Positions 806-12,176 of a stretch of DNA of 37,660 bases are shown here, one piece after another (position 1 is the stretch's first letter; each line of letters begins with the position of its first letter). The stretch comes from an uncultured Candidatus Saccharibacteria bacterium. Lineage in GTDB: Bacteria; Patescibacteriota; Minisyncoccia; JAHIHE01; JAGLIN01. The translations under genes and the position numbers were made by a program. The stretch spans positions 1 through 37,660 of the forward strand of contig CAYPQL010000005.1 in assembly GCA_964412905.1 (NCBI GenBank), given 5' to 3'. The notes under the pieces were generated by a model that had not been told where the DNA came from, made no database searches, and was given only the letters and a program-made list of their open reading frames with translations.

Positions 806-3800
806 ATGAAAAAAATGTTATTAAACAAAGTAAAAAAAATTGCAAGTTTTATGCTTGTGTTATCAATGACTATTTCTAATTTAATTTTTGTTCCAGCCAC
901 ACAAGCTGTTGGGGCTTCATTAATAATAGGAAGCGATACTGCGAACAATGGAGAGTCAATTAGTATTCCAATTTTTGCTGCCAGTCCTTTTGTGGATGTT
1001 GCCAGCGTGACTATGTATATCAATTATGATTTAAGCTTACTTGAATATATTGGTTATGCATTAGATCAGTTACCGTCAGCAACTGTTAATAAAGTTGGAA
1101 ATCAGATTAGAATTGTTTGGTTTGATTCCACAGGAACAACGCCGATATCCTTTAATAACGCTGATACGCTTTTGAATTTGAATTTTAATGTAATCTCTAG
1201 CGATATTACAACTACTAATATAACTTTTGATTCTTCTTCTGTAATAGGAGATAGTTCTGCTAGCGTTATTTTCACTACTTTTACAAACGGTGTTATTACT
1301 TTAAATTCTGATCAAACAGCTCCAATTGTAACTGAAGTAACCGCGGTTCCAACGCCAACCAAGGATAATACTCCCAGCTATACATTCAATTCAACCGAAG
1401 CGGGAACGATCACTTATGACGGCGGATGTATTGGAGATGCTACCAATGCGAACGCAGGCGACAACCCAATAATTTTTGACACGCTTAGCGATGGAGTTTA
1501 TAACAGCTGCACAATTACGGTAACTGACGCTGATGATAACGCGAGCACACCCTTGCTTGTAAATACATTTACCGTTGATACAGTTGCGCCTGCAATTATT
1601 AGTTATACTTTAAACGGCGTTGAAAGCAACGCTACTTTTAATCCAGATTTAGGTGAAACAGTTGAAATAGTATTAAACGCGAACGAAAATGTTTATAATT
1701 GGGTTTCGTTGAAAATAGAAAATATGAATAATAGCGGAATATATAAATATTATTCTCCTGATTGTGATGGAAATTCACAGTGTGTGAAAACATGGGACGG
1801 ATCAATATCGCCAGGAACACTTGTTGACGGCGTGTATAAAATAAAAGTGAAAATGAAAGATGAAGCTGGAAATGTTTTCGATGAATATCTTGCGCCGTAT
1901 GTGATAATTGTTAATACTGTTACAGAAGATACAACCCCGCCAGTCATCACTTTACTTGGCAATAATCCAGTTAATCTGAATGTAGATGATATTTACGCTG
2001 ATGCCGGAGCTACTGCCAGCGATGATGTTGATGGAGATATTACAGCAAGTATTGTTATAGTAAATCCGGTAAATACAAATATAGCAGATACTTATACGGT
2101 TACTTATAATGTTTCAGATACGGCTGGTAATTCAGCAACAGAAGTGACCAGAACTGTTAATGTGGGTGAAGTACCGGACATAATCCCTCCAACCGCCACG
2201 ATTTTTTACAGCGCCACAGCCCCAACGAATGCTGATGTTGTCGCGACTATGACTCCAAGCGAGCCAGTAACAGTGACAAACAACAGCGGAAGTCTTTCAT
2301 ATACCTTTACCGCGAACGGAACATTTACTTTTGAATTTAGCGACGCGGCGGGTAATACCGGATCTGCGGTCGCAACTGTGAATAATATTGATAAAGTCGC
2401 GCCAACGATAACAACAAAATTGGGCGATGGAGTTGTTGATTATACAATTGAAGCAAACACTACAGCGAATTTGGTTTTTAGCGAGGAATTATCTTCAAGC
2501 TCTGAAACGGCGGTTCAAAACGCTCTGAGCGCGGGAGCTGATAGAACATTAACTTACGCATGGTCTGGCGCAACGCTCACGATTACAGCTACAGAAGCGA
2601 CGACTTTTGCGAATGATGTTGTTGTAAATGTTTCTGATCTTGCGGGAAATGCAGCAGAATTATTATTAGTTGACTCCGCTTTATCCGGCGACCAAACCAC
2701 TCCCGACACTGGTACGGGAGACGCTACTCTTAATAATACAACTCCGCAAGTTGTAATTACCAATCCGACTCAAGAAGTGAATATTACAATCGGTAGCGGG
2801 ACAACCAACCCTACGATTGATGTGAGCTCATTTATTTCCGGAGGAACAGGAACAATTCCGAAAATCACAATTGAATCGGAAAACGCGGATGTCGCTATTC
2901 CGGCTTCCACAACCGTTACGAGCGAGGACGCTTTATGGAACGGAATAATTAACGCGCCAACTGTTACGACCGTTGAATTGCCGGAAACTTCGGGCGAGAC
3001 GACAACACTTAATACTGCTATAGAAATTGGATTTACCGGCGCTAAATTATCTTTTGACAATGCGGTTAGAATATTAATTCCGGATCAGGCTGGCAAGAAA
3101 GCAGGTTATGTTAGAACTGGAATGACATTCACGGAGATTACTTCCAGTTGTTCCGCCGACAGCCAGGCAACGGGAGATGCTTTAGCCCCCGATGGCGATT
3201 GCAAGATTGATGTCGGTTCTGATTTAGTAATCTGGACAAAACACTTCACGAAATTCGCGGCATATACTCAAACCGCAATTCCTTCAACCGGCGGCGGAGG
3301 CGGAATTATTTCTACAACTTCGCCGACCGGCGCTTCAATCATTATCAACAACGGAGAATCTAACATTGCAAGCGCGAATGTTACTTTGACTTTGTCAGCT
3401 TCTAACGCCATACAAATGGCAATCTCGAATAATTCAGATTTTACCGATGTAAGCTGGGAAACTTATGCGGCTTCAAAAGAATGGGTGTTGACTTCCAGCA
3501 CTGGCGAAAAAACTGTCTATGCCAAATTCCGAAGTTCAAACGGCGGCGTGTCTTCTGTCGTTTCTGACAGCATTGTCTTAAACAACGCGAACAAAAATTC
3601 TAATTCAAATTCAACGGGAAAAGTTAAAGGCGTGGAAGATATAACAGTGGAAGATACAACTATCACCGACGGCGACATCATCCAGTGTAAATCTTGCTCA
3701 CAACCATTCGCGGTCTATATTGTTAAAATTACAGGCAACGCTAAATACATCCGCCACATCGCAAGCATTAATATCTTCAACCACTACAGCCATCTTAAAT

Positions 3801-4054
3801 GGGAAAACCTCAAGCAAGTTTCTTCTCTGAATGACTATTCTTTATCCGGCTGGGTAAGGGTAAATACCGGAACGAACGGAACCGCCGCTCCGACGGACAA
3901 AGTGTATGAAATAAACGGCGATCAAACTAGACACTGGATCAATATGACCGCGGAGCAATTCTTGTCTCATGGCGGATCGGAACCGGCGATATTTAATATC
4001 AATCATGGAGAATCAAATCTTTACGCCGCCGGAGCTGATGTGACGAGCTTATAA
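806..4054 (+). CDS. Large secreted/surface protein: signal peptide, N-terminal cohesin-like domain, several Ig-like domains (including FlgD-like and DUF5011-like) and a distinct C-terminal domain
   Basis: Signal peptide MKKMLL...ATQA. Cohesin-like pattern GESISIPI...INYDLSLLEY...IRIVW...LLNLNFNV...ITF...NGVITL. Repeated D-x-x-[AP]-P linkers, the DTTPPVITLLG...GATASDDVDGDIT motif and Thr/Ser-rich composition. Confidence 0.75.
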   Translation: MKKMLLNKVKKIASFMLVLSMTISNLIFVPATQAVGASLIIGSDTANNGESISIPIFAASPFVDVASVTMYINYDLSLLEYIGYALDQLPSATVNKVGNQIRIVWFDSTGTTPISFNNADTLLNLNFNVISSDITTTNITFDSSSVIGDSSASVIFTTFTNGVITLNSDQTAPIVTEVTAVPTPTKDNTPSYTFNSTEAGTITYDGGCIGDATNANAGDNPIIFDTLSDGVYNSCTITVTDADDNASTPLLVNTFTVDTVAPAIISYTLNGVESNATFNPDLGETVEIVLNANENVYNWVSLKIENMNNSGIYKYYSPDCDGNSQCVKTWDGSISPGTLVDGVYKIKVKMKDEAGNVFDEYLAPYVIIVNTVTEDTTPPVITLLGNNPVNLNVDDIYADAGATASDDVDGDITASIVIVNPVNTNIADTYTVTYNVSDTAGNSATEVTRTVNVGEVPDIIPPTATIFYSATAPTNADVVATMTPSEPVTVTNNSGSLSYTFTANGTFTFEFSDAAGNTGSAVATVNNIDKVAPTITTKLGDGVVDYTIEANTTANLVFSEELSSSSETAVQNALSAGADRTLTYAWSGATLTITATEATTFANDVVVNVSDLAGNAAELLLVDSALSGDQTTPDTGTGDATLNNTTPQVVITNPTQEVNITIGSGTTNPTIDVSSFISGGTGTIPKITIESENADVAIPASTTVTSEDALWNGIINAPTVTTVELPETSGETTTLNTAIEIGFTGAKLSFDNAVRILIPDQAGKKAGYVRTGMTFTEITSSCSADSQATGDALAPDGDCKIDVGSDLVIWTKHFTKFAAYTQTAIPSTGGGGGIISTTSPTGASIIINNGESNIASANVTLTLSASNAIQMAISNNSDFTDVSWETYAASKEWVLTSSTGEKTVYAKFRSSNGGVSSVVSDSIVLNNANKNSNSNSTGKVKGVEDITVEDTTITDGDIIQCKSCSQPFAVYIVKITGNAKYIRHIASINIFNHYSHLKWENLKQVSSLNDYSLSGWVRVNTGTNGTAAPTDKVYEINGDQTRHWINMTAEQFLSHGGSEPAIFNINHGESNLYAAGADVTSL

Positions 4055-4073
4055 GAATTTGCGATTATGCCCG

Positions 4074-4110
4074 CAAAACCCGGCCTCATCAGCCGGGTTT
4101 TGTTTTGTTT
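4074..4110 (+). terminator. Rho-independent terminator after the surface-protein gene
   Basis: CAAAACCCGGC / GCCGGGTTTTG stem followed by a T-rich tract. Confidence 0.8.
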
Positions 4111-4187: not shown

Positions 4188-4221
4188 TAGTGTCTTTTCT
4201 ACGGCCGTAGAAAAGACACTA
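4188..4221. repeat. 34-bp perfect palindrome, copy 1
   Basis: TAGTGTCTTTTCTACGG|CCGTAGAAAAGACACTA, identical to 4837-4870. Confidence 0.95.
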
Positions 4222-4308
4222 TGCTTATTCTGTAAATAGATGTATAATTAAAATAGACATGTAATCAAAACCATAAAGCTTAATCAAAATCATTAATCAT
4301 TAATCATT

Positions 4309-4839
4309 ATGAAATTGCCAATCACTGAAAATTTTTTGCTGGATGTTTATAATCACATTGAAAAATTAGATGAAACTTTTAGCCTATTTATCCCCCGAAC
4401 AATGAAAGAAGCTTGCTATCCCGATCTTTATGAATTGAAGCAACAGCACAAAAGAAGAAAGACGAAACAAGAATTCAGCCAGTTGGTCTATTATTTAAAG
4501 AAAAAAGGATATATTAAAATTAAAAATCTAGAGCAGAATAAAGGAGTTATTTTAACGAAAAAAGGAGAAGAGAAGGTTCTAAGAATAAAATTTAAAATAA
4601 GGAAAAAAGAAGAAAGATCGGATAAAAAATGGCAAATGATAATTTTTGATATTCCCGAAAAGAAAAGACGCCTGAGAGATTTATTGCGGGACAATCTTTG
4701 CCTTTTGGAATACAGAATGCTCCAACAAAGCATCTGGGTCTGCCCTTATGATGTTCAAAAAGAAACAGAATTTATTCTAAGAAAACATTCTCTTGACCCA
4801 TATGTAAAATTGTTCCTGATAGAAGAAATAGAAATATAG
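4309..4839 (+). CDS. PaaX-like protein: winged-HTH-like N-terminus plus Cas2/VapD-like ferredoxin-fold domain
   Basis: LVYYLKKKGYI...LTKKG (wHTH wing), then WQMIIFDIPEKKRRLRD...L...YRMLQQSIW, the FDIPE / LQxSVW signature shared by the PaaX central domain and Cas2. Confidence 0.75.
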   Translation: MKLPITENFLLDVYNHIEKLDETFSLFIPRTMKEACYPDLYELKQQHKRRKTKQEFSQLVYYLKKKGYIKIKNLEQNKGVILTKKGEEKVLRIKFKIRKKEERSDKKWQMIIFDIPEKKRRLRDLLRDNLCLLEYRMLQQSIWVCPYDVQKETEFILRKHSLDPYVKLFLIEEIEI

Positions 4840-4875
4840 TGTCTTTTCTACGGCCGTAGAAAAGACACTATATTT
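4832..4875. repeat. 44-bp perfect palindrome, copy 2 (contains the 34-bp core and the stop codon of the preceding gene)
   Basis: AAATATAGTGTCTTTTCTACGG|CCGTAGAAAAGACACTATATTT; the TAG stop lies at 4837-4839. Confidence 0.95.
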
Positions 4876-4892
4876 AATTATTACTAAGTAAT

Positions 4893-4933
4893 TATTATTA
4901 AAGAAGTATTATTAAAGAAGTATTATTAAAGAA
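4893..4933. repeat. 14-bp tandem repeat, about 3 copies
   Basis: TATTATTAAAGAAG x2 plus TATTATTAAAGAA. Confidence 0.9.
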
Positions 4934-4984: not shown

Positions 4985-6118
4985 ATGAACTGCGAAAGAT
5001 CGCTGGGTTTGCATAAAAAACTTGGCGGAAAGCTGGAAATTAAAAGCAAATTTGAAATTAAAACGAAAGAGGATTTGAGTATGGCGTATACTCCTTGCGT
5101 TGCCGAGGTTTCTTCCGCGATAGCGAAAGACAAAAAGCTGGCGAGAGAATATACTATAAAGAAAAATACGGTGGCGGTTGTTTCCGACGGGAGCGCTGTT
5201 TTGGGGCTGGGCAATATCGGCGCGGAAGCGGCAATTCCCGTGATGGAAGGGAAGGCGATTTTATTCAAAGAACTTGCCGGCGTTGACGCGTTTCCGATCT
5301 GCCTGAAAACCCAGGACCCGGATGAAATTATTGGAATCGTGAAAAATATCTCTCCGGTTTTCGGGGGAATAAACATGGAAGATATTGCCGCGCCGAATTG
5401 TTTTTATATTGAAGAAAAATTGCAGGATATCGGAATACCGGTTATGCACGACGATCAGCACGGAACGGCGATAGTCGTCGTTGCCGCGCTGATGAACGCT
5501 TCAAAGGTTCTCGGCAAAAAAATAAGCTCTATGAAAATTGTGATTGTCGGCGCGGGAGCCGCGGGAACCGCGATCGCGAAAATGATAGCGCGCGAATTGG
5601 ATCCGAAAGACATAATTATCTGCGACAGCAAAGGCATAATAAGCGGAGACAGAAAAGATCTAAATCCGGCGAAGGAAAAGCTTCTTGAAATTACAAATAA
5701 AAATAACGCCTCGGGAAATATGAAAAACGCGCTGGCGGGCGCGGATGTTTTTATCGGAGTTTCAAAAGGAGGAATTCTAAACGTTGATCTGGTTAAAACT
5801 ATGAATGTCAATCCCATTATATTCGCGATGGCGAATCCGATTCCGGAGATTATGCCGGATGAAGCGAAAAAAGCCGGCGCGTTTATCATCGGCTCGGGAA
5901 GAAGCGATTTCCCAAATCAGATAAACAACGCCTTGGTTTTTCCGGGAATTTTCAGGGGGCTTTTGGATAATAATATAATAAAAATTACCGATAAAATCAA
6001 GATGAACGCGGCGAAAGCTTTGGCGGGCTATGTCAAAAATCCGACCGCTGAAAATATTCTGCCCGGCATACTTGATAAAAAAGCGGCGGCGGCCGTCGCG
6101 AATAGCGTTAAAGGATAA
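4985..6118 (+). CDS. NAD(P)-dependent malic enzyme (short bacterial type)
   Basis: Motifs AYTP, DGSAVLGLGNIG, MEGK, EDIAAP, HDDQHGTA, GAGAAG, FAMANP and GRSDFPNQINN. Confidence 0.95.
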   Translation: MNCERSLGLHKKLGGKLEIKSKFEIKTKEDLSMAYTPCVAEVSSAIAKDKKLAREYTIKKNTVAVVSDGSAVLGLGNIGAEAAIPVMEGKAILFKELAGVDAFPICLKTQDPDEIIGIVKNISPVFGGINMEDIAAPNCFYIEEKLQDIGIPVMHDDQHGTAIVVVAALMNASKVLGKKISSMKIVIVGAGAAGTAIAKMIARELDPKDIIICDSKGIISGDRKDLNPAKEKLLEITNKNNASGNMKNALAGADVFIGVSKGGILNVDLVKTMNVNPIIFAMANPIPEIMPDEAKKAGAFIIGSGRSDFPNQINNALVFPGIFRGLLDNNIIKITDKIKMNAAKALAGYVKNPTAENILPGILDKKAAAAVANSVKG

Positions 6119-10385: not shown

Positions 10386-12176
10386 ATGATCAATAATGAA
10401 ATAAAGAAAATTTTGGACGGGGTGGCGGGGGATTTGTATGAAAACATAGAAATTCCCGATTTTGCCGTCCAGTGGCCAAGGCAAAAAGAGCATGGCGATT
10501 ATGCTTCTAATATAGCTATGATTTTGGCTGGAAAGCTGAACAGAAATCCAATGGAAATCGCGAAAGAAATAAAAAATAAAATTGATTTAGAAAAAAATAT
10601 GGAAGCTAAGCTTCCTGTAGGAAGCTTAGCTTCCAAGTCAGATATAAAGAATTTATTCAGCAAAATCACAATTGCTAAGCCTGGTTTTATTAATTTTGAA
10701 ATTGCGAATAAGTATCTAATCAAAAACCTGGCTGAAGTATTGAATAAAAAAGACAAGTTTGGTTCGTCTAATCTGGAAAAAGAAAAAACAGTTGTCATTG
10801 ATTACTCTTCGCCGAACATTGTCAAACCGATGCATGTCGGCCATTTGCGCACAACTATAATTGGCCAGGCGCTTTGCAATATATATAAATATTTAGGCTA
10901 TAAAGTCATTAGCGATAATCATATTGGCGATTGGGGAACACAGTTTGGAAAGCTGATTTACGCTTATAAAAATTGGGGCGACAAGAAAAAGATAGGCAAA
11001 GATCCGATTGAAGAAATGACGAAACTTTATGTGCGGTTTCACAAGGAAGTGCAAGCGAATAAAGAATTGGAAGAACTTGCTAGGATTGAGACAAAAAGGC
11101 TTCAGGATAAAAATGATGAGAATATGAAAATTTGGAAATATCTAGTGAGGGAAAGCTTGAAGGACTTCAATAGGATTTATAAAATTTTGGGTATTAAATT
11201 TGACCAAACATTGGGAGAAAGCTTTTATGATGATATGCTTGCTGGAGTTGTCGCAGAATGTTTAGATCGAAAGATTGCGCAAAATAGCGAAGGCGCCGTT
11301 ATTATCAATCTGGATAAATATAATTTGCCGCCATTCCTGATTAAAAAAACAGACGGAGCGTATTTATACACGACAACGGATCTGGCGACGGCAAAATATA
11401 GAAAAGAAAAATTGAAGGCGGACAAAATTCTTTATGTGGTTTCCAACGAGCAGACATTGCACTTTCAGCAATTATTTTCTTCTTTGGAGTTGTTAGCTTG
11501 GAGCAAGGGCATTGAAATGGAACATATAAAATTCGGAATGGTTTTGGGAGAAGCGGGAAAGAAGTTTTCAACGAGAAAAGGGGAGACTATAAAGCTTGAG
11601 GATATGATAAAAAAATCCATAGAACTGGCAAAAAAAGTTGTGGAAGAGAAAAATCCCAAATTTAGCAACAAGCAAAAGAAAAAAATTGCCAAAATCGTGG
11701 GGCTGGGGGCGATAAAATATAACGACCTGTCTCAAAACAGGCTGACGGATATAACTTTCAACTGGGACAAGATGCTTTCTTTTGACGGAAACAGCGCGCC
11801 GTATTTGCAATATACTTACGCGAGGATAAATTCTTTGGTGGAAAAATATAATAAGCGCTATCCGCTGGACAGGTTTAATCCGTTTGAAAAAACCGATTTT
11901 GATTTGTTGAAGGAAAATATTGAAAAAGACATAATGAGGCAAGAATTGAAATTTCCCGAAGCGATTGAAAACTCGGCAAAAGAAAATTCCCCGCATTTAA
12001 TCGCTTTATATTTATATGAGCTGGCGTCTTTGTATAATAGTTTTTATAACACTTTGCCTATTATTAAATCGGAAAAGAAACTGGCAAAGGCAAGAATTTC
12101 TCTTTCTCTTTCCGCCGCCATCGTCATAAAAAACGGATTAAACTTGCTTGGCATCGAATCGCCGGAAAAGATGTAG
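10386..12176 (+). CDS. argS: Arginine--tRNA ligase
   Basis: HGDYASN, DYSSPN, HIGH-like HVGH, GDWGTQFG, KFSTRKG, YLQYTYAR and a C-terminal EKM. Confidence 0.97.
   Translation: MINNEIKKILDGVAGDLYENIEIPDFAVQWPRQKEHGDYASNIAMILAGKLNRNPMEIAKEIKNKIDLEKNMEAKLPVGSLASKSDIKNLFSKITIAKPGFINFEIANKYLIKNLAEVLNKKDKFGSSNLEKEKTVVIDYSSPNIVKPMHVGHLRTTIIGQALCNIYKYLGYKVISDNHIGDWGTQFGKLIYAYKNWGDKKKIGKDPIEEMTKLYVRFHKEVQANKELEELARIETKRLQDKNDENMKIWKYLVRESLKDFNRIYKILGIKFDQTLGESFYDDMLAGVVAECLDRKIAQNSEGAVIINLDKYNLPPFLIKKTDGAYLYTTTDLATAKYRKEKLKADKILYVVSNEQTLHFQQLFSSLELLAWSKGIEMEHIKFGMVLGEAGKKFSTRKGETIKLEDMIKKSIELAKKVVEEKNPKFSNKQKKKIAKIVGLGAIKYNDLSQNRLTDITFNWDKMLSFDGNSAPYLQYTYARINSLVEKYNKRYPLDRFNPFEKTDFDLLKENIEKDIMRQELKFPEAIENSAKENSPHLIALYLYELASLYNSFYNTLPIIKSEKKLAKARISLSLSAAIVIKNGLNLLGIESPEKM
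10600..10635. repeat. REP-like palindrome in frame within argS
   Basis: TGGAAGCTAAGCTTCCT-GT-AGGAAGCTTAGCTTCCA, encoding MEAKLPVGSLAS. Confidence 0.9.

Follow-up and report, generated by a model that had tools for sequence, protein, structure and literature searches.

A cut-down PaaX gene bracketed by perfect palindromes recurs as a cassette at gene junctions in Patescibacteria

The stretch of DNA analysed here, which we call the window, spans 37,660 nucleotides (positions 1 to 37,660 of contig CAYPQL010000005.1, assembly GCA_964412905.1) from an uncultured Candidatus Saccharibacteria bacterium, an ultra-small inhabitant of groundwater, and contains a short gene for a PaaX-like protein that is bracketed by two copies of a perfect palindrome. 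We refer to the protein as mini-PaaX, to the palindrome as P, and to the gene together with its two copies of P as the cassette. P is 34 bp long, loop-less and centred on CGGCCG. With up to three mismatches allowed, exactly two copies were found in the window, an upstream one at 4188–4221 (P_up) and a downstream one at 4837–4870 (P_down), their centres 649 bp apart; the chance expectation was 0 matches in 100 shuffles. The single open reading frame (ORF) between them, at 4309–4839 on the + strand, encodes 176 aa. Its ATG (4309) lies 87 nt beyond the end of P_up, and its TAG stop codon (4837–4839) is formed by the first three bases of P_down, which widens to a perfect 44-bp palindrome at 4832–4875. 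This geometry, including the lack of a third copy in the window, is as given in a preliminary description of the locus made from the letters alone. Elsewhere in the same genome, one near copy of the exact palindrome was found, on contig C39 with 3 mismatches.

The cassette sits between a terminator and the malic enzyme gene, as had also been described. Upstream, a surface-protein ORF (806–4054) with a Bact_surface_Ig-like domain is closed by a terminator-like hairpin with a T-run (4073–4103, + strand) that lies outside the cassette. Downstream, the co-directional malic enzyme gene (4985–6118, + strand) is possibly controlled from P_down, and the order of cassette and then malic enzyme gene was also found in two other genomes (G006 and G012). 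Within the cassette, a TATAAT −10-like hexamer at 4243–4248 (+ strand), 38 nt past the P_up centre, is the proposed promoter of the mini-PaaX gene, and P_up, which is conserved in homologues, would be the operator that abuts it. Both copies of P have terminator-like hairpin scores on both strands, and the RNA fold of P_down reaches −29.1 kcal/mol (z −6.2). By its position and predicted fold, P_down at the stop codon looks like a terminator; it is also proposed as a second binding site. Right after P_down, three tandem 14-nt units (4876–4931) precede the malic enzyme gene; the orthologous locus L073 has other sequence in their place.

In a Pfam scan, the 176-aa protein matched PaaX_M (PF20803) with an E value of 1.3e-20 and 73.7 bits against a cut-off of 24. 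Nothing else rose above cut-off: there was no HUH, tyrosine-recombinase or other transposase domain, and no match to the PaaX N-terminal domain was listed. The PaaX equivalog model TIGR02277 scored 29.7 bits against a cut-off of 264.55, two Cas2 models stayed below their cut-offs (PF09827, 19.1 versus 23.8 bits; TIGR01573, 20.1 versus 24.5 bits), and PADLOC returned weak Cas2 matches only. An AlphaFold model based on a 44-sequence alignment (mean predicted local distance difference test score, pLDDT, 79.8) has helices and a two-strand wing (winged helix, about residues 38–82) followed by a beta-alpha-beta-beta-alpha-beta domain, the PaaX_M/Cas2-like domain at about residues 102–172. Compared with the PDB by Foldseek, the model aligned best with E. 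coli PaaX (8a39; 124 aligned columns, E 1e-3), and many Cas2 chains came next; at the sequence level, the family profile had no match in the PDB at E ≤1. The protein stops after PaaX_M, and the C-terminal effector (phenylacetyl-CoA) domain of PaaX, PaaX_C, is absent. Because of the PF20803 match, the modelled wing and Cas2-like domain, the match to 8a39 and the end of the protein after PaaX_M, we conclude that mini-PaaX consists of PaaX domains one and two and lacks the C-terminal domain that binds the effector. The PaaX/Cas2-like identity proposed in the preliminary description, with a winged helix-turn-helix (wHTH), is borne out by these results. Its statement that no CRISPR array or other cas gene is present also held, with no Cas1 (PF01867) in the 98% complete genome and the two copies of P as the only repeats. 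Asp114 and Gln139/Ser141 are invariant in the 44-sequence alignment. A homodimer prediction gave a median score of 0.25 against a mark of 0.42 and was not used for or against any reading.

Relatives of mini-PaaX number at least 376 at E ≤1e-5 in a word-based search of 5.8 billion proteins. Among the 120 matches listed, nearly all are 174–178 aa long, contain PF20803 and are labelled hypothetical, or PaaX by one source. Related contigs carry the labels Patescibacteria, Paceibacterota and Parcubacteria, with sporadic homologues on contigs labelled Kuenenbacteria, Wildermuthbacteria, Saccharibacteria and Falkowbacteria. A homologue was present in 22 of 41 relatives (the genome of the window counted); within the taxonomic family of the window, 10 of the 23 other genomes had one. 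The protein is rare in a sample drawn evenly from the phylum (4 of 400 other genomes at E ≤1e-30), and its occurrence is concentrated near the lineage of the window. Among the viral contigs searched there was no relative of mini-PaaX.

The flanks of homologues were examined for 61 distinct full-length proteins from Patescibacteria, under a strict definition of a palindrome that asked for a CGRYCG-like centre and pairing at 12 or more of 22 positions. Palindromes were found on both sides in 50 of the 61 loci, whereas homologues lacking flanking palindromes would have spoken against the reading in the preliminary description. The remaining 11 loci mostly have one good side, with the other degenerate or empty by this rule; at L096 and L097 the palindrome centre falls outside the rule's pattern. 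The layout persists down to 37–46% protein identity (L053, L052, L113, L114 and L118), and bracketing by palindromes is a trait of the family. P_down is usually centred 14–15 nt past the stop codon. The inner part of P that is common to the family is a T-run, two to four bases and then ACGRYCGT, and the outer 12 nt of the arms are 74–84% identical among the four arms of one locus versus 43% between loci. A comparison of proximal with distal arms to find a crossover point gave no difference. In 3 of 3 loci with asymmetric centres (CGGTCG or CGACCG) in both palindromes (L010, L032 and L114), one copy is inverted relative to the other, which is too small a number to test.

The placement of P_up relative to promoter motifs also recurs. 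In 21 of 54 loci, the right arm of P_up contains a −10-like hexamer exactly 15 nt past the centre, and the ATG of these loci follows at 26–33 nt past the centre; in 12 of the 54, the window included, the hexamer is found at 38–39 nt. As predicted from these hexamers, P_up would carry the cassette promoter in many homologues and abut it in the window. At several DegT|FemAB loci, the distance from P_down to the downstream gene is about that from P_up to the cassette gene, as far as the imprecise start calls allow. The preliminary description had considered the downstream copy hard to explain as a simple operator. This argument is weak because P_down precedes a co-directional gene, has P_up-like spacing in some loci and scores as terminator-like.

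The genome of the window (1.28 Mb in 89 contigs) contains four PF20803 genes. Besides the one in the window, there are two further full-length copies, on contigs C13 (75% identity) and C47 (66% identity), and a distant relative on C18 (31% identity) that is apparently N-terminally short. Every full-length copy has its own palindrome pair; that on C13 is a variant of the window pair, and that on C47 has quite different arms and a CGATCG centre. On contig C16, a 20-codon 3′ remnant of a mini-PaaX gene is still flanked by two C47-type palindromes, and an Rfam search of this remnant gave microRNA matches at chance level only.

Orthologous cassettes indicate how palindrome and protein change together. 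Locus L073 encodes a protein 94% identical to that of the window in the same flanks, and its cassette DNA is about 93–95% identical. The palindromes of the two loci have only four differences (4191, 4218, 4840 and 4867), which amount to a single arm position changed in mirror fashion in all four arms, and the proteins have 11 residue differences, including S57N in the putative recognition helix. Joint change of the same kind was seen in orthologues of the other paralogues (L080 for C47 and L076 for C13). When the 61 loci are tabulated, particular helix variants accompany particular arm types, a KQKFSQL[IV]YR helix being paired with ATAACCTCTTT arms in 5 loci, and the arms track the protein clade. 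The expected co-variation of the palindrome with the wHTH was therefore found to the extent that arms follow protein clade and recognition-helix sequence, while the association between helix and arms is suggestive only, because it is confounded by shared descent.

P is not restricted to cassettes. Among 512 CGRYCG sites in the genome of the window, 23 are paired at 14 or more of 22 positions, and 21 of those are P-type by architecture: 6 belong to the three cassettes, 2 to the C16 remnant and 13 lie elsewhere. P-type sites are located between co-directional or convergent genes, and solo P centres are often 79–104 nt ahead of an ATG, like P_up. Single P sites adjoin AntA, NUDIX and other genes, and pilin-like genes on C28 and C16 are each bracketed by C47-type P. 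The order on C28 (5810–6520, L131) is P, pilin-like gene, P; that on C16 (20026–21120, L132) is an array of P, mini-PaaX 3′ remnant, P, pilin-like gene, P. There is also a pilin-like gene behind the C47 cassette itself. On C1 (25748–27869, L127), two near-identical 58-bp palindromes 2 kb apart have between them a Bro-N gene, an ORF of 97 aa and another resembling a PBECR2 nuclease, and a third near-identical 58-bp copy lies on C3 ahead of AntA and KilA-N genes. Around the C1 pair, relatives compared through a nicotinamidase-like neighbour are too diverged for synteny to be informative and have no P at that place. When the flanking genes of the 13 solo P were compared with those of 58 cassette loci from other genomes and metagenomes, nothing was shared beyond a pilin N-terminus.

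The number of palindromes follows the presence of the gene. In a tally of the P-core pattern over the 41 genomes, every one of the 12 that have a close homologue gave at least four matches (range 4–36), as did only 2 of the 29 without one, namely G014 (15) and G011 (4); controls gave 0–5 matches. Because one site can yield several overlapping matches and the genomes are related, this tally is a trend and not a test. The preliminary description had held that a palindrome abundant independently of the gene would speak against its reading. Abundance was instead found to follow the gene, with G014 and G011 as exceptions. G014 contains 8 near-perfect solo P, five of them sharing arms of ~19–20 nt, and no PaaX_M gene was found in its assembly, which is 96% complete.

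Cassettes lie nearly always between co-directional housekeeping genes, and the contexts, which were assigned by script before the protein tree was drawn, recur: upstream of malic enzyme, and at the junctions prepilin peptidase|LigA (pepA|ligA), IscS|ThiI, TatD|LeuRS, DegT|FemAB-like and MurF|DapE-like. In a metagenome with a close relative, the orthologues of all three paralogues are in the same flanks, with 94, 89 and 92% protein identity. Since the relative keeps the three paralogues in place and the paralogues within the genome are only 66–75% identical to one another, there is no sign of recent transposition.

Among relatives, the same junctions are found in different states. The pepA|ligA genes are adjacent in 19 relatives, of which 3 have a cassette, 1 (G014) a solo P and 15 neither, with gaps down to 31 nt. 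In its arms, the G014 solo P agrees with P_down of the cassette that occupies this junction in G006. To the right of the solo P, the sequence aligns with that beyond the G006 P_down; to the left, it matches, as compared by eye, what precedes P_up in G006. Judged from these matches, the G014 junction is a clean empty site with one P. TatD|LeuRS is adjacent in 15 relatives (1 with a cassette, 1 with a solo P in G006 and 13 with neither), and in three more genomes a cassette follows TatD with LeuRS out of view. Of 16 genomes compared ahead of the malic enzyme gene, 3 carry the cassette; in G002 a lone hybrid palindrome lies ~490 nt upstream, and the other 12 show no P over the 450 nt inspected. 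The genome of the window itself has neither cassette nor P at the pepA|ligA and TatD|LeuRS junctions. Filled and empty junctions are highly diverged outside P, with the exception of G006 versus G014. The cassette block is therefore a unit of gain and loss, present as P-gene-P, as a single P or with no P at the same junctions. Empty sites with a single palindrome had been anticipated in related genomes, and G014 at pepA|ligA and G006 at TatD|LeuRS provide them. The contrary picture, of a stably syntenic gene without empty sites, agrees with the data only in its first half: the three paralogues have stable flanks in the close relative, but empty and solo-P sites exist.

Cassettes at one junction are not all of one descent. 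The five cassettes preceding ligA do not group together when the 61 proteins are placed on a maximum-likelihood tree, and forcing them into one clade costs 91.4 log-likelihood units (approximately unbiased (AU) test, p 0.0003). The palindrome arms of these five go with the protein clade and not with the junction. Some junctions also contain small inverted-repeat elements with GTCATT..CGAG ends that resemble miniature transposons. One of them fills the pepA|ligA spacer in the genome of the window (C16:16650–16850, L156), and a similar one lies between P_down and the malic enzyme gene in L073 and is not found in the window. Many homologues are on contigs of ~590–2500 bp. The public sequences that could be compared with the locus, assembled contigs at low depth, end within P_up or P_down and show no joints. 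Because palindromes break assemblies, metagenome-assembled genomes probably under-count mini-PaaX cassettes, which bears on the apparent absence of the gene from G014.

The explanation that we favour, with a confidence only a little better than even, is that mini-PaaX is a cut-down autorepressor of the PaaX type whose operator palindromes also allow deletion and insertion of the cassette by recombination between copies of P. PaaX itself, according to a review (PMC9493321), is dimeric and combines a wHTH and a dimerisation motif with a C-terminal domain; it binds TGATTC(N27)GAATCA and represses its own promoter. By this likeness, a mini-PaaX dimer would bind the two widely spaced outer arms of P, with the Cas2-like middle domain as its dimerisation motif. 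It would repress itself, because P_up abuts or contains its own promoter, and P_down would both terminate transcription through its hairpin and offer a second binding site ahead of the next co-directional gene. Additional solo P could be extra sites or footprints. Recombination between the two P would delete the gene and leave one P, since the two are long matching repeats and any recombination would yield this product; the reverse reaction would insert the gene at a P. The block would thus act as a portable cassette, gained and lost over evolutionary time, with the mini-PaaX protein as a regulator and not a recombinase. Binding to P, repression, termination and the route of recombination are all predictions, and so are the circular intermediate of the preliminary description and any nuclease or strand-transfer activity of the protein.

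Comparison with PaaX supports this reading in several respects. PaaX structures (PDB 8a39 and 3l09) likewise have an N-terminal winged helix and then the Cas2-like middle domain (PF20803), and the scale of the PaaX operator with its widely spaced inverted half-sites, as described in PMC9493321, resembles P. Unlike PaaX, mini-PaaX has 176 instead of ~305 aa, lacks the PaaX_C effector domain and scores far below the TIGR02277 cut-off, and no paa genes adjoin its gene. Its site is also a fully perfect palindrome, with one copy on either side of the gene and others dispersed through the genome, and gain and loss concern the block as a whole. The cassette also resembles the gene cassettes of integrons, which are single genes bounded by imperfectly conserved palindromic sites. 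The C16 array of P, remnant, P, pilin-like gene and P, and the single site that remains where the gene is absent, are of this kind, but the mini-PaaX cassette, unlike those of integrons, encodes its own putative site-reading protein together with a promoter.

Several observations weigh against the autorepressor reading. A PaaX-type operator needs its outer half-sites alone, so that the full perfection over 34–58 bp and the conserved CGRYCG centre are unaccounted for. The near-identical solo copies (58 bp on C1 and C3, and five in G014) look more like repeat copying than like independently evolved operators. P can persist without the protein, as in G014, or the gene was missed there. Different protein clades at one junction would call for movement or replacement between sites, because the ligA-junction cassettes are polyphyletic and plain deletion is insufficient. 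First entry into the junctions without P (15 of 19 and 13 of 15) is unexplained, and the confounding by shared descent noted above limits what the association of helix and arms can contribute.

Some of these points would be better explained by an active system comparable to repetitive extragenic palindromic (REP) sequences and the REP-associated tyrosine transposases (RAYTs), which we consider possible but doubtful. Here, mini-PaaX would be a palindrome-specific nuclease or recombinase whose winged helix reads the arms and whose Cas2-like domain (Asp114) cuts or joins, spreading solo P and moving, excising and swapping its own cassette. RAYT genes are flanked by their repeats and co-evolve with them, and repeat abundance tracks the gene, as stated in PMC2817692; all three hallmarks are found for mini-PaaX and P. 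Inheritance of RAYTs and REPINs among close relatives is mostly vertical according to a preprint (bioRxiv 10.1101/2022.05.22.493013), and in this too the systems are alike. Multi-copy, near-identical solo P, filled, solo-P and empty states at the same junction, pepA|ligA cassettes that are not one clade and the inverted asymmetric-centre pairs in 3 of 3 loci also favour an active system. So does an arrangement in which one end carries the promoter while the opposite end contains the stop codon, a layout of compact insertion sequences.

Against activity, the Pfam scan contains no transposase or recombinase domain of the HUH, tyrosine-recombinase or other kind, and mini-PaaX, unlike RAYTs, is not an HUH/Y1 (IS200/IS605-like) transposase. 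The residues invariant in the 44 sequences, Asp114 and Gln139/Ser141, could be listed in its favour, but they are those conserved in the PaaX_M family in general, and because characterised members of that family are repressors, they are no argument for catalysis. Recent transposition has left no sign in the flanks or in the divergence of the paralogues, and no homologue was found on the viral contigs searched. P occurs about 21 times per genome and not in the hundreds (~20 repeat copies here versus >100 for REPs), its copies are loop-less perfect palindromes, and several diverged paralogues are present per genome, which also separates this system from RAYT/REP. The strongest form of the idea, in which mini-PaaX proteins form a new class of palindrome-specific DNA-processing enzymes on the Cas2 fold that multiply and scatter cognate palindromes and shift their own cassette from one intergenic site to another, as a Patescibacteria counterpart of RAYT/REPIN with non-HUH chemistry, is in our judgement rather unlikely.

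It is also possible to see P as a host element, a bidirectional hairpin terminator or insulator spread and kept uniform by template switching and gene conversion, next to a protein that is not P-specific and has simply inherited the pairing. We rate this as improbable, although the terminator-like scores of both P on both strands, the strong RNA fold and the location of P-type sites between co-directional or convergent genes all fit it, and G014 keeps P without the gene. The genome also holds 144 long hairpins and palindromes in several unrelated loop-less families, and template-switch correction of quasi-palindromes could give mirrored changes without selection. What a host element does not account for is that the two copies at one gene match and yet differ between paralogues in the same genome, that abundance follows the gene (12 of 12 versus 2 of 29 genomes), that the −10 hexamer stands at a fixed offset from the P_up centre and that arm types follow recognition-helix variants.

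Finally, an orphan CRISPR-type Cas2 or VapD-like toxin among the degenerate repeats of a lost array is very improbable: mini-PaaX does share with Cas2/VapD the ferredoxin-like fold in its C-terminal half, a conserved Asp after the first strand and sub-threshold Cas2 matches, but its Cas2 scores fall under the family cut-offs with PaaX_M far higher, it is fused to a winged helix and aligns best as a whole to PaaX, the genome has no cas1 or array, and the repeats, 649 bp apart, enclose the gene.

In a literature search (supplementary files not covered), we found no published account of a palindrome-bracketed mini-PaaX layout. To our knowledge, Patescibacteria have tiny genomes with few recognisable regulators, and their transcription control is almost unstudied. 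The family described here adds at least 376 proteins, mostly annotated as hypothetical, each with a readable partner DNA site. Such matched pairs of protein and site could be used to study how DNA-binding specificity diverges between paralogues, and could supply ready-made orthogonal repressor/operator parts. If it is true that the protein moves palindromes, the cassette would represent a new kind of mobile DNA on the Cas2 fold.

P is one of several palindrome families in this genome. Among the 144 long hairpins and palindromes are other loop-less families centred on AAGCTT, GGATCC, TCGCGA, CCTAGG and others, with ~5–9 copies each; these may be orphans, because there are just four PF20803 genes in the genome. 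The CCTAGG family is found near the distant PF20803 relative on C18 (21256–21642, L007), which has half of a CCTAGG-centred palindrome behind it. Full perfect copies of 40–44 bp occur at C1:21603, C52:5684 and C56:4007 and a variant at C37:7515, two of which adjoin Bro-N genes, and a relative in G001 has the same palindrome core 16 nt past its stop codon. The window itself contains one non-P palindrome, at 10600–10635.

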